A stretch of 62,557 bases of DNA, counting the filler, from Welwitschia mirabilis (lineage: Eukaryota): assembly GCA_051453625.1 (NCBI GenBank). It is 3 parts of one record of this genome, joined end to end, with 100 filler letters (N's around TTAATTAATTAA, not from the genome) between each part and the next. Parts side by side here need not be neighbours in the genome. Positions count along the whole stretch, not along the records: positions 1 to 22,766 come from JBOZIK010000001.1; positions 22,867 to 54,475 come from JBOZIK010000001.1; 1 more part is not named here. One strand, given 5' to 3'. The translations under genes were made by a program, and so were the position numbers. The notes below the pieces were generated by a model. It was not told the origin of the DNA. It did not search any database and worked only from the letters and a program-made list of their open reading frames with translations. Shown here in pieces: positions 7,262 through 36,005 of the stretch; positions within the stretch are counted from its first letter, which is position 1; every line of letters starts with the position of its first letter.

Positions 7262-7393
7262 TTTTTTCCCCTAAGATTTTCACAAATATTATCCATGTCT
7301 ATGGTAGGAACTCCTAAACATTTTATTTTACAAACATGTCTCTACTTCTAATGTGCATGGATGTTTTCAAGCATGTTGTGTGTTAAACCATCT
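7262..7393 (-). pseudogene. CAF1: Captured fragment of CRS2-associated factor (CRM domain 1)
   Basis: Translates [38 protein letters not shown], matching the recalled CAF1/CAF2 CRM motif [24 protein letters not shown].DMDN.C. The paralog is uncertain from this piece alone. Confidence 0.85.
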
Positions 7394-7475
7394 TATTGTG
7401 TGTTATGCCCATAGAACATGTGAATTTTATTTTTGCTAGAACTTCCTATCACAGCTCTATAATAATAAATGCACA
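7389..7475 (-). pseudogene. POLH: Captured fragment of DNA polymerase eta (Y-family)
   Basis: Translates AFIIIEL**EVLAKIKFTCSMGITHNKM versus recalled plant POLH IIVAELR.QVL.ETEFTCSAGIAHNKM. Confidence 0.8.
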
Positions 7476-9376
7476 AATGCAACATCCTAGAAGCTGGTAG
7501 ATGCTTTTGCTACTAATACCTAGAGCCGCAACCATAAGGGATCTAGTGATATCAATTCGATGGATGTCATTTTGATGGATGAACAAGGTCTACACAGAGT
7601 TTAAGGAAGGCATGGTTGTGGTCTCCCATGCAGTGACTAGAGAGAAAAAATAAATGAGATAGGATCATGCATGCATAATGCCCAGTGGGTGACATGCTTG
7701 CCATTATTAGGCTTTGCAATAAACACCTATTCTCAACTGGTCATGACAGCCTTGTCACTATTTTATTGTTTGATATCAATCAAAAATAATAAAAAGGATG
7801 ATAATAAATTTGCTTTTATTTACTATGTTAGACTATATGTCACTACTGCATTGCTTTCCCGCATTTACATTGTAAGATCCAAATCGACACAAAGAGGGAT
7901 GAAGAAGTACAATATCCACACAACCTTCTAGATGTTTCTTTTTTATGATTACTTTCCATTTTGCCAATTCATTTTCTCTCTTATTTATGACAATGGCAGT
8001 GAGTCAAACACCATTAGTCCATTCTTGTCTGTATTCACTATAAAATTTTCTAGTTCTTCTGATTACATCGATGATAAATATGATGATTTAAATCAAAATC
8101 TTAAATAAACTTCTTCTTTTTCTTTAGAACTTAATACAAGAATGATGTTTAGGGAGGAGAATTAAAAAATCACGACATGGAGGAGGAGGCTTAACAAAAA
8201 TAAAATAAAAGGAACTTTTCCTTAGGGATTGGAGGATACATCAGATTAAAAAAGAACACAATTAAGAGAAAATAGAAAGGGCATAACAAGAAGGTAAGGA
8301 AAAGAATAGCGAGAGGAAAAAGAAGGAATAGAATGCTAGAAAATACCAGAGAGCATGGTGAAAACACATGGAAGAGGAGATGCACCTCATTAAAAAAATG
8401 CTAACACATGAACACATTAGAACAATGTCAGGACAGAGATCAAGATGCTGCAAAAGAGGGAAAACTAGGAGAACTACATGGAAGCTATTAGAAACAGACA
8501 GACATACTAACATAGAAACATGCATCAGAGGAGAGAGGGGACACACTAAAAAGAAGATCATCACAAAAAATAAGGGACAACATAGAAAAAAATACAAAGG
8601 CCATTAGATAAGCTAGCAAGAATGCATAGACAGATGCGAAGAATGATAGAAGCATTATAACAGAGGAGGAGGAATTCAAAAAAATCAGCAATAAATGCTA
8701 GCCTAAAAGAATAGGTAAAAAGCATTAGATATGCATAGAACAGGGATGCATTAAGCAAAGATGCAAAACAATTAGAGTGAAAGGGTATTAAATAATAGCA
8801 AACAACAATGAACGGCATCAAAAGGCCAGTAGGAGTGTGCATTGTAATACGAAGAGCAAAGTAAATCCTTGCCTAGAATCAACATTTAAGTTTCCATTTT
8901 ATCTTTCCATGGTCATAGATCATCTCCATTATCGGTTGTAAATTCATTCGTTTTTTATTTATTTCATGGTTTTCAATTGGCTATTTCAAAAAATATTAAA
9001 AATATGTTTTTAATTTTCTTTTTAATGAATTTTTCTTATTAATAATTTTGTCTATATAGTATCTTGAAAATTGTAAATCCACAAATCTCAAATTGTGATA
9101 GTGTGATAATACTTTAAAAACAAAAGGCTTTTTTTTTAAAAATTATTTTCAATTATATTTCTAGATTTTATTTCCTAAATTATTTCTTCTAGGTTTCATT
9201 CATAATTTAATGATTAATTATAGACTTTAAAAAATTTATAATATCATACACCTAAAGCATAATATCAATTAGCCATTAGTCTTTATTCAACTTAAATATT
9301 TTAACATTTCTAAAATTCTAAGTAAAACACCATACAACAAAAAATTCAATGTTGTAAAAAATAGTCGTAACAGTTT

Positions 9377-9392
9377 TGGTGCTAGAAGGAGG
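9377..9392 (+). promoter_or_regulatory. Primer binding site complementary to tRNA-Asn
   Basis: TGGTGCTAGAAGGAGG is one C>T change from TGGCGCTAGAAGGAGG, the complement of the recalled plant tRNA-Asn(GTT) 3' end; it lies 4 bp after the LTR CA. Confidence 0.75.
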
Positions 9393-9494
9393 ACCCCTCG
9401 TGTAGATTTTTTATTATTTTCTTAATCATTTTGGATCATGTTTTTCTTATCCTTTACTTTTCCTACCACCTTATCACACTTCATAGCAGTAATA

Positions 9495-9721
9495 ATGTCA
9501 ATATTGACCCATAGGGAAAAAACCTGCATTTCTGAAAATGAGTACAAGGTACTCACCCAAAAACACTTATCAACCTTCACCTCCAATGAACTTCATGTCA
9601 TAAATGGTTATAGGAGTTATCGGGAAGGCTACCTTACCTATTCCACTCAAAGAATACGATCACTAATAATTAGAAAACTAGTACTCCCAGATGATGAAAA
9701 TAAGGTTCTCTTTGAAGACCC
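9495..9721 (+). pseudogene. First ORF segment of the Tat element (gag N-terminus or 5' extra ORF), cut by an LTR insertion
   Basis: Open frame MSILTHREKTCISENEYKVL...LFEDP begins about 100 bp after the PBS and is interrupted where the LTR starts at 9722. Confidence 0.5.
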
Positions 9722-33440: not shown

Positions 33441-33979
33441 TCATGCCTCTATTGGTTCATTTTCACTTAATCTTTCTTAATATTTGAAATTAATTATGTC
33501 AAAGTTATTTTTCGGATTTACTTTCAAACTTGTTTAAGGCTAATTCCACTTTTAGTTAACTTGTCCATTTTTAATACCCAAATGCTTTTTACTATATAGT
33601 TATTTTAACTCATTTTTATTTCATTTAATTGAGTTCATTTCTTCACTTCATCATCATTCATAATGCATTTGTCATCTCCATTATACGCACATCCAAATAT
33701 TGTTCACATTTCATTTTCATAATTTATTCAAGTTATACCTCATCTATCTCAATTTTCATTTGATCACATATGTCTAAAATTTTTGATGTAAAGCTCACCC
33801 TTCCACTTATTTTATTTTATTTTTATAATTTTTTCCCTTTCTTTTGTGAAACCTTACAAGGATAATCAAAAATCTTCTTTAGTTTCTGTCATGTAATAGA
33901 ACCACTTGATAGGTTTTAATAACCAACATTATACTCATTGGTTTAACAACTTTGCTATCTATCTTAAGGCATTTAAAGG

Positions 33980-34660
33980 ATCTTGGCAATGCTTTTTTTT
34001 ATAAACAAAAAAATGGAGGATAGTATCAGGATCTAAATCAGATTCATTTAACAGAATTAGATTACCATCTTCAATTGCCTCCAACTAGAGTGTATTCAGA
34101 TCTGAGCTCCTTTTCATATTACTTACAGATGAAGGCATCAATGTGACACTAGCATCTTCTTTATCCATTACAAGATTAGGTGCTTTGCTTAATGTCTGAT
34201 TTTGATATACAATCAATGAAAACTATTTTCATTGTTGTACATTGCGCTCTTGGAGGCTATAGTTCGGAATTTGAAACTAGATTCAAGTTGCTAGAATATA
34301 TTTGATTTTCACTTGAATTGGATAAGGACTTTCCTTCTGTTAAAGTATCAGCGTCAAACACGTTAGCCTTTCCATGAACAGGCCTTTTATCTAATAAACA
34401 TTTTGATTGCACTCTCATATCAAGTAAGTGCTCATTTTCTTTGAAATCGATTTCATCCTCCTCTGCTTGATATTCATGTTTAGGAGGAGAAAGTATGTAG
34501 GATTCTATATCGTGCTAGATATCTTCTTTAACATTACTATCCAAATATTCATTTGAGATTTGTAACTCAGTAATCATTTTTTTTTTTTTTTTTGGTGCAA
34601 CTACATCCTTGACATTTTTAAATGATAACAATACATTTCCATTTACTTCCTCTTCATAAG
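33980..34660 (-). pseudogene. CAF1: Captured CRS2-associated factor C-terminal region
   Basis: Decayed acidic frame ending L*LEAIEDGNLILLNESDLDPDTI, similar to the recalled CAF1 C-terminal motif L.QAVESG.A.VLD..DLDPDTV; same strand as, and downstream of, the CRM piece. Confidence 0.6.
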
Positions 34661-34680
34661 GGATATTAGCCATGTCTATG

Positions 34681-34853
34681 AATGACTTCTCCTTGTATGA
34701 ATGACTTTACCTCTAGTTTTTTTTTCTTTCTTAAGCTTTTCATAGATATTAGCCATGTCTATGGTAGGAACCCCTAGACATTTTATTTTACAAACATGCC
34801 TGTGCTTCCAATATGCATGGATGTTTTCAAGCATGTTGTGTGTTAAACCATCT
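34681..34853 (-). pseudogene. CAF1: Captured CRS2-associated factor CRM domain fragment
   Basis: ORF track 34676-34945 contains [52 protein letters not shown]. Confidence 0.88.
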
Positions 34854-36005
34854 TGTGATGTGATACGCCCGCAGAACATGTGAATTTTATTTTTTCCAGA
34901 ACCTCCAATCGCAGCTCTGCAACAATGAATGCACAGACGTAACATCCTAGAAGCTGGTAGGTGCTTTTGTTGCTGATACCCAGGGACGCAGCCACAAGGA
35001 CTCTAGTGACATCAATTAGATGGATGTTGTTTTGGTGGATGAACAATGTCTGTCCAGAGTTTAAGGAAGGCATGGTTGTGGTCTCTCATGTAATGACTGA
35101 AGAGCAAAATAAATGAGACAAGATCATGCACGTGTACGGCTCAATGGACGACATGCTTGCCGTTATCAGGCTTACAATAAATGCCTTTTCTCAACTAGTC
35201 ACCACAACCTTGTCACTATTGGTAAATATCAGAGAGCACAGCAAAAACGCATGGCAGAGGAGACGCACCGCACCTTATGAAAAAGAATGCTAATAGAAAT
35301 GCAGATCAAAATGAGGTCGGGACAGAGATCAAGACACTGCAAAAGAGGGAATACCAGGAGAACCTCATGGAAGCGATCAGAAAGGGGATCAAACAACAGC
35401 AAACGACAAGAAATGGCATCGAAAGGCCAGTAGGAGTACGCATTGCAACGTGAATAGCAAAGTAAGTCCTAGCCTCGAATAAACATTCAGGTTCCCATTT
35501 TGTCTTTCCATTGTAATAGATCATCTACATTATTGGTTGCAAATTCATTCTTTTTTAATTTATTTCATGGTTTTCAATCAGCTATAGTTTTTTTAATATA
35601 ATTTTGGACTTATTATTAGTATCCAAAAAAATAAAAATATGTTTTTAATTTTTTTTAATTGAAATCTTTCTAATAATACTTTTATTTATATAGTGTCTTG
35701 AAAATAGTAAACGCACAAATCTCCAATTGTAATAGTGTGATAACACTTCAAAGAGAAAAGGCTTTTTTTTAAAAAAATTATTCTAAATTATATTTTAGAT
35801 TTTATTTCCTAAATTATTCCTTTTAGATTTCATCCATAATTTAATGGTTAATTATAAGCTTTAGGAAATCCGTAATATCTTACACCCAAATCATAATATC
35901 AATTAGCCATTAGCCTTTATTCAACTCAAATATTTTAACATTTTCAAAATCCTAGGTAAGACACCATATAACAAAAATTTAACGTTGCGAAAAATAATTA
36001 TAATA
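34720..36005 (+). repeat. 3' LTR of the Tat element (portion alignable to the 5' LTR; true start may be as far left as 32927)
   Basis: Colinear with 7262-9372 except for two deletions (about 7763-8340 and 8494-8778); ends AAAATAATTATAATA versus AAAATAGTCGTAACA. Confidence 0.75.
34849..34936 (-). pseudogene. POLH: Captured DNA polymerase eta fragment
   Basis: ORF track 34843-35073 contains CAFIVAELRLEVLEKIKFTCSAGVSHHKM, the Y-family TCSAG(I/V).HNK motif. Confidence 0.85.

Follow-up and report, generated by a model that had tools for sequence, protein, structure and literature searches.

The 62,557-nt stretch of the Welwitschia mirabilis genome analyzed here (assembly GCA_051453625.1; filler included, hereafter the window) contains a direct repeat whose two copies each carry, on the minus strand, an exon-like fragment of the gene for the translesion polymerase DNA polymerase eta (POLH) joined directly to a fragment of CAF1, the gene for a chloroplast intron-splicing factor. 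The window was AT-rich and of plant type, with a GC content of 20-36% in 2-kb sections, and it held 12 runs of N; only 10 stop-to-stop frames of at least 120 amino acids were present, 9 of which crossed N runs. The repeat aligned between 7261-9374 and 34719-36007, and its copies were delimited on the plus strand at 7261-9372 (left) and 34719-36005 (right), with no third copy found within the window. Three aligned blocks showed 84%, 77%, and 82% identity (approximately 82% overall), and two extra segments were present in the left copy at about 7763-8340 and 8495-8778. Kimura two-parameter (K2P) distances were 0.19-0.28 per block and 0.21 over 1,248 aligned repeat sites, comprising 156 transitions and 65 transversions. 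Plant sequences accumulate about 1.3e-8 substitutions per site per year, a rate at which the copies would be roughly 8 million years old if they were identical at birth. The flanks of the two copies shared no further homology, even with 7-nt words, Pfam searches with 18 further open reading frames (ORFs) of the repeat and interior returned nothing meaningful, and a tandem repeat scan found nothing useful. A preliminary description of this DNA had placed the copies at 7262-7475 and 34681-34936; both segments do fall in the repeat copies, except that 34681-34718 lies outside the repeat.

The CAF1 component was recognized with stop-free ORFs used as Pfam queries. An open frame of 108 aa, read from the minus strand at 34679-35002 in the right copy, matched the CRM domain (PF01985; E = 2e-9) with 38.1 bits, the cut-off being 27. 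In a large protein set, 100 of the 126 candidates retrieved with this ORF reached E ≤ 1e-3, every one of these 100 carried PF01985, and many were named CRS2-associated factor 1; the PDB gave no match to the same ORF. Six of the 100 proteins were run against the window by tblastn, and the best of them, P0001, aligned through residues 244-283 to 7392-7273 in the left copy (85%, E = 8e-16, two stops) and through residues 229-293 to the right copy at 34909-34697. The presence of a CRM-domain CAF piece in both repeats was thereby borne out by domain and protein searches alike. Two further stretches of P0001 followed on the minus strand of the right locus, residues 461-619 at 34706-34215 (66% over 164 aa) and residues 628-693 at 34210-34013 (91% over 66 aa), with a joint E value of 5e-83, such that the CAF1 homology extended about 700 bp past the right repeat boundary (34013-34706). 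The left CRM-exon fragment (7273-7392, minus strand, P0001 residues 244-283) thus holds two stops, and its homology stops at an A-run near 7261; the right CRM-exon fragment (34697-34852, minus strand, residues 244-293) holds a 6-nt A-run expansion at 34721; and the C-terminal fragment outside the repeat (34013-34706, minus strand, residues 461-693) has two stops and lacks 24 nt at 34211-34215. The CAF1 content of the right locus is therefore a fragment only, namely residues 244-293 and 461-693 of 763.

Two DNA runs, in the form of contigs, and two RNA runs, in the form of raw reads, were mapped to 31200-36870 at 80% likeness. RNA reads over the CAF1 pieces ended at 34852 and 34696, and their loose ends encoded neighboring CAF1 residues; the 6 nt at 34721 were missing from 14 of 14 and 35 of 36 reads. 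P0001, a transcriptome entry, exactly spells the peptides RSKRQLHIGR, HRQGGVIFLFR, FIGEDKKYT, and KAIAFAQNA, and because these four are coded by the loose ends of RNA reads bearing the same species label as the window, P0001 is the product of the donor gene or of a very close relative. Compared with the donor RNA, the window copy of CAF1 also contained a 13-nt T-rich insert at 34001-34013, beyond which 11 of 12 bases matched the donor mRNA again. Donor-type letters over the C-terminal piece (34383-34384 and 34169) were seen in 5-8 DNA contigs of organism A, and the genome therefore holds several CAF1-like sequences, which may be paralogues, homeologues, or further fragments.

The POLH component was identified by a set of tests that are each weak alone and that agree with one another. 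The piece scored E = 0.026 against the Pfam IMS family (14.9 bits, below the cut-off of 23.2); in a phmmer search of the PDB, all 10 matches were DNA polymerase eta, at a weak E of 0.1; and in a protein atlas, 28 of 30 named matches belonged to the IMS set, with a top score of 0.94. A phmmer search of 1.84 billion proteins gave four matches at E ≤ 1e-3, two of which were IMS fragments, including P0104 (E = 6.8e-4; 23 of 36 positions identical to the piece), and the remaining two, bacterial Ig-repeat proteins, were rejected as spurious since their score came from summed repeats. P0104 itself gave 10 PDB matches at E near 9e-5, all of them polymerase eta, with a telomerase reverse transcriptase as the 11th at E = 0.95. 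Used as a tblastn query, it located the fragment in both copies on the minus strand, at 34956-34849 on the right (E = 4e-10; about 36 residues, corresponding to one exon) and at 7496-7389 on the left (E = 2.6e-5, 53% over 36 aa, two stops). Two word-index searches of a 5.8-billion-protein set returned nothing for the piece at E ≤ 10, which counts against the identification. On balance, the sequence comparisons point to a POLH-like exon in both repeats, as had been proposed. RNA reads covered 34853-34999 and were absent from 35000-35189, and the POLH exon-like stretch may thus reach about 34999. The X13:X16 read ratio over 34853-34999 differed from that over CAF1. At 34857, 18 of 18 X13 reads and 3 of 3 X16 reads changed the His codon of the window to the Asn of the conserved HNKM motif; their source may be the genuine POLH gene or a further copy of the block.

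The two donors meet at the same point in both copies, where an identical 18-nt POLH-CAF1 junction string occupies 7375-7392 on the left and 34835-34852 on the right. The fusion therefore arose once. Read along the minus strand, the order is the POLH exon, the CRM-exon piece of CAF1, and the C-terminal third of CAF1, so that the POLH piece does join the CAF piece directly, as the preliminary description had stated, and runs antisense to the plus-strand pol genes of the window. Reads of CAF1 mRNA ceased to match at 34852 and the POLH frame continued to an ATG at 34851-34849; accordingly, the two sources overlap by at most 4 letters, within a GATG-type overlap at 34849-34853. A second junction (34655-34696, minus strand), as read from the sequence, joins about residue 297 of CAF1 to about residue 476. 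Within it, the 10-mer GTCATTCATA occurs twice, and 34664-34681 is an 18-nt copy of 34746-34763, 80 nt away. Such overlaps and small duplications at the joints would fit template switching by a reverse transcriptase (RT) and patch repair of a DNA break equally well. The CAF1 parts showed no intron, and the 0.7 kb upstream of the POLH exon was without RNA cover.

The mapped contigs indicated that the block is low-copy and lies between very abundant repeats. Summed contig depth, which does not equal copy number and was used for its contrast alone, fell from 1,100-44,000 over 31200-33669 to about 155-166 over 33670-33859 and 7-58 over 33860-35569, then rose to 81-390 over 35570-36139 and 2,000-13,700 over 36140-36870. 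The distinct contigs (X1 and X5, respectively) followed the same pattern, numbering 2 and 4 at 34857, 2-3 and 4 at 35028-35093, 3-8 and 2-9 at 35410-35580, and 49 and 52 at 35927, with 85-108 at 31432-31578. Only the last ~100 bases of the repeat, represented by about 50 contigs at 35927, are common to a larger family. Two organism B contigs spanned the junction at 83-85% identity, one matching 35241-35703 with a single difference. A contig joint linking 33616 with 35778 would place the block as an insertion within a high-copy long terminal repeat (LTR). It was rejected as weak: it occurred in one contig, with 20 letters on the short side, AT-rich look-alikes lie on both sides, and the LTR in question is complete without the block.

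Transcripts mapped only to 33860-34999, with next to none from 35189 to 36870. Where the window copy could be told apart from its donor, the reads carried a letter other than that of the window in 88 of 90 cases at 34169, 83 of 83 at 34383/4, and 78 of 78 at 34478, so that, across the three diagnostic sites, 249 of 251 reads bore the letter of the donor gene. The window copy is therefore silent in the two RNA libraries, and the copies yielded no local long RNA in either of them.

What the repeat itself represents was judged mainly from its 3' boundary. The left copy ends in CA at 9371-9372, and after GTTT, four bases on, a plus-strand 16-mer starting with TGG, TGGTGCTAGAAGGAGG, follows at 9377-9392 in the manner of a primer-binding site (PBS). 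Homology between the copies stops within 2 nt of that CA, and the 16-mer is the sole match in the window even when 3 mismatches are allowed. The right copy ends in TA at the corresponding position, and neither GTTT nor TGGTGCTAGAAGGAGG follows it. The motif on the left alone gives the asymmetry of a 5' LTR adjoining its PBS and a 3' LTR adjoining its flank, and the spacing is in keeping with the parts of Neumann et al. 2019 used here, in which a PBS was accepted 0-5 nt from the LTR end. The same parts report tRNA-Asn primers in 2% of plant elements and the type of PBS as a marker of lineages, and the ATHILAfinder preprint, as far as drawn on here, gives a different PBS string, common to tRNA-Asp and tRNA-Asn. 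The claim that the left copy ends in CA plus a PBS is thus sustained with respect to the CA and a PBS-like 16-mer. In our best reading, to which we attach somewhat better than even confidence, the repeat is an LTR, the left copy being a 5' LTR minus its 5' part and the right copy the 3' portion of a 3' or solo LTR.

The 5' boundary behaved differently. The left copy breaks in an A-run inside the CAF1 exon, and the right copy reads through into residues 461-693. Because the left copy breaks within the exon and the right CAF1 homology runs 700 bp further, the left LTR appears to be truncated, and positions 7261 and 34719 probably mark a break inside a captured exon rather than an LTR end. The plus strand before 34719 was pyrimidine-rich, with no purine runs in 33624-34718. 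With respect to a target-site duplication, GTGTC follows 36005 with no matching pentamer before 7261, a test that is void if the left LTR is truncated. The earlier proposal that the fragments lie inside the LTR accordingly stands in part: the shared fragments do lie in a repeat with a CA-plus-PBS-like end, but CAF1 crosses the right boundary and no 5' end of the LTR was located.

Several observations weigh against reading the repeat as an LTR, in addition to the limit on contig depth given above. Neither copy showed a polypurine tract, TG, or target-site duplication on or close to its 5' boundary, the start of the supposed LTR could not be placed, and the sole strong polypurine tract nearby (32894-32941) serves another LTR of ~680 bp. 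No gag or pol linkable to the repeat was detected, and the 330 bp after the PBS-like motif were without a coding match. Likeness between the sequence after this motif and that after the motif of an LTR copy at 22040-22766 did not exceed that of shuffled sequences, 311 of 500 of which reached the score. Six N runs separate the copies, which lie on different contigs of the scaffold. In addition, TGGTGCTAGAAGGAGG would fit the 3' end of plant nuclear tRNA-Asn at 15 of 16 places, with a C-to-T change at the odd one, but the literature searched did not confirm tRNA-Asn as its primer, and tRNA genes were absent from the window.

The foremost alternative is a segmental duplication of a low-copy stretch that contained a chimeric pseudogene, in which case the repeat would be no LTR and the TGG motif would be coincidental or would belong to a neighbor. 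In its favor are the 5' boundary, which has no polypurine tract, TG, or target-site duplication, the CAF1 homology across the right boundary, and the low copy number of the block amid high-copy repeats; several duplicated blocks in this scaffold also adjoin N runs. However, a duplication would need its breakpoint to land within 2 nt of a CA followed by a canonically spaced TGG 16-mer, and the moderately repeated last ~100 nt resemble an LTR end common to relatives. We consider this explanation unlikely.

We attach still less probability to the mosaic being cargo of another transposon (Helitron, Pack-MULE, or CACTA) that inserted in or near an LTR, with the LTR element acting as a carrier. According to the accounts drawn on here, pieces of two unrelated genes in one orientation are what Helitrons and Pack-MULEs typically carry, and the DNA on both sides of the block, namely 35000-35777 (~0.7 kb upstream of POLH) and 33624-34012 (~0.4 kb downstream of CAF1), is of no known origin. 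However, the inverted repeats between 33400-36400 and 6500-9700 were only AT-rich ones of at most 25 nt, matched at 72-94% (one 14-nt pair at 100%), and the minus strand of 33560-34013 contained no CTRR-T, the signature of a Helitron 3' end, decayed ends being outside the reach of both tests. The termini that would have assigned the mosaic to a Helitron or MULE, terminal inverted repeats (TIRs) or a CTRR-T 3' end, were thus not seen around the window copies.

Between the copies lie several retroelement remnants, which bear on the assignment of the repeat to the Tat group. The plus-strand pol remnant E2 (24424-27705), preceded by a protease ORF at 23850-24149, contains an extra RNase H domain between RT and integrase (Pfam RVT_3 at 26625-26891, E = 1.4e-7). 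An additional RNase H of archaeal type (aRH) is given as the hallmark of the Tat clade of Ty3/gypsy in the parts of Neumann et al. 2019 consulted, and we infer that RVT_3 corresponds to it, which would make E2 Tat-like. A second Tat-like remnant, E3 (27865-31168, plus strand), carries RT, an RNase H-like domain, and integrase (RVT_1 E = 0.0075 and Integrase_H2C2 E = 0.0011, both below cut-off; rve 1e-10), and is 79% identical to E2 on the other side of a 100-N gap. E3 has its own polypurine tract, a 48-nt purine run at 32894-32941, and its own short 3' LTR on the plus strand from 32946 to about 33623 (~680 bp), which belongs to a high-copy family distinct from the repeat and ends about 1.1 kb before the right copy. 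This LTR aligned with 37167-37758 and 22040-22766, an alignment from which the end at about 33623 was inferred and which led us to reject an alternative end at CATCA (33652-33656). Further upstream, a chromovirus-like RT/RNase H/integrase remnant, E1, occupies 19834-21711 on the plus strand (tblastx; Pfam RT_RNaseH_2, 8.5e-8), and an LTR of family F is nested at 9724-10920 on the plus strand, about 330 bp after the PBS-like motif, starting with TG, followed by TGGTAGC, and matching 4148-5376 and 44848-46092 at 62-66%.

In light of these features, the interval 7262-36005 should not be read as one Tat element, as had been supposed, since it spans six N runs, at least three pol sets (E1, E2, and E3), a nested F LTR, and the LTR of E3. 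A Tat-type pol with RVT_3 does lie between the copies on the same strand, in line with the earlier claim, but no test ties these pols to the repeat. In the minus-strand LTR copy at 22040-22766, CA is followed by GATTT and a TGG-starting motif at 22079, which agrees with the motif at 9377 in 10 of 13 places; this likeness, not significant alone, hints that the Tat-type elements here share a primer. We regard as very doubtful the specific proposition that the block sits in the unique 3' (U3) region of a Tat-type LTR and was copied by retrotransposition at least once. If it were true, every full-length transcript and every solo LTR would carry ~1 kb of antisense CAF1/POLH sequence, and small interfering RNA (siRNA) cross-talk could follow, involving the translesion polymerase and the plastid splicing factor.

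The least probable of all is the preliminary idea of a "Pack-LTR" family that amplifies host exons within U3, deposits them as solo LTRs, and produces antisense RNA or siRNA against POLH and CAF1. In its favor, the block runs antisense to the pol genes and would be within any full-length element RNA, and maize provides a documented case of siRNA cross-talk arising from captured fragments (10.1101/777037). Against it, only a handful of contigs covers the block (2-9 at places within it versus 49-108 in the flanking repeats), the copies are ~20% diverged and full of stops, the reads at the three diagnostic sites come almost entirely from elsewhere, RNA cover is zero on 35000-35189 and next to none onward, and Muyle et al. 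(10.1101/777037) saw no rise in copy number after capture.

Other elements of the window were recorded alongside these. Three copies of the high-copy short LTR family are present, one on the plus strand (32894-33623, tract included) and two on the minus strand (37167-37758 and 22040-22766). The minus-strand copy at 37167-37758, with a purine run before it, may be the 3' LTR of a decayed gypsy element at 38428-44067 (minus strand), in which Pfam recognized gag, RT, and RT_RNaseH and no extra RNase H was detected. Family F LTR copies, with a TG start, lie at 4148-5376, 9724-10920, 44848-46092, and 52057-53402; those at 4148-5376 and 9724-10920 are followed by TGGTAGC and therefore look like plus-strand 5' LTRs. 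The segment 5400-5950 matches 52855-53402, so that the sequence adjoining the left repeat copy on its left side may be F-element interior. Pairs of ~80%-identical blocks flank 100-N gaps (24424-27705 versus 27865-31109 and 41309-41711 versus 41812-42213), which could be real tandem elements or haplotypes or paralogues juxtaposed by the scaffolder. Between direct repeats at 46550-47240 and 50797-51490 (82%) are gag ORFs of the copia type (DUF4219, Retrotran_gag_2/3; 48592-49317), in a region (46550-52018) with a 929-N gap inside.

Compared with described systems, the Welwitschia fragments lie in the repeat, antisense, and dead, whereas those of the maize element Bs1 are reportedly internal, in sense orientation, and part of an expressed hybrid ORF. 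The likeness lies in the fusion itself, Bs1 being a plant LTR retrotransposon with pieces of three host genes and thus with fused fragments of more than one cellular gene (PMC13317346). In the maize Sireviruses, which likewise hold exon fragments inside LTR retrotransposons but belong to the copia superfamily and to another species, 204 of 6,200 elements (3%) carry such fragments, 15% of those carry two or more, and the reported captures showed neither orientation bias nor copy-number gain, with siRNA cross-talk tested (10.1101/777037). Foreign sequence entered the LTR elements BARE-2 and Veju by aberrant template switching (PMC13317346); BARE-2 resembles the present case in that foreign sequence within the LTR was then inherited by a subgroup, but its source was another retrotransposon and that of Veju is unknown, neither being described as host exons in the part of the source used here. 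Pack-MULEs and gene-carrying Helitrons share with the Welwitschia block the same-orientation mosaic of fragments from unlinked genes, whereas the Welwitschia repeat ends in CA plus a PBS-like motif, with no TIR or Helitron end found. Across 22 Mb of maize sequence, gene fragments were described in 20 LTR retrotransposons and siRNAs from such fragments were proposed, and thousands of captures were reported in rice and sorghum, according to the portions of these studies drawn on. The view that a mosaic in an LTR is out of the ordinary is thus only partly upheld: such mosaics are indeed typical of Helitrons and Pack-MULEs, but capture by LTR retrotransposons, multi-gene mosaics included, has already been described. 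Gene-fragment capture by plant LTR retrotransposons and the idea of siRNA cross-talk are published, and what the present case adds is its two donors and what is probably an LTR location.

The account that we find somewhat easier to believe than to doubt, as a whole, is that of a single-origin block in an LTR that was copied and then truncated on the left. The chimeric pseudogene block formed once, probably through template switching or patch repair, and would have lain inside the LTR of an old, low-copy LTR retrotransposon with a tRNA-Asn-type primer site, probably of the Tat group. Retrotransposition would then have duplicated the LTR and the block with it, leaving two survivors, a 5' LTR with its PBS on the left and a 3' or solo LTR on the right, which may derive from one much-invaded element or from two that belonged to the same small lineage. 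Later, a kilobase or more would have been lost from the start of the left LTR, and it is because of this loss that the repeat appears to begin inside a CAF1 exon. Thereafter, the copies diverged by ~20% and gained stops and indels, in a lineage that never expanded.

For annotation, both pseudo-exon blocks should be masked, 7262-36005 should not be called one element, and repeat boundaries that fall within captured exons should be treated as breaks rather than ends. As donors, the genes for a translesion polymerase and for a chloroplast intron-splicing factor are not evidently linked, and no effect on the host is expected because the copies are dead. What survives at this locus is rare and silent, the relic of a gene capture of known type and not a thriving new transposon family. 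It offers a clean, small example of how the repeats of plant retrotransposons can pick up and duplicate host exons, leaving scraps that may be taken wrongly for genes or for an element of a new class.

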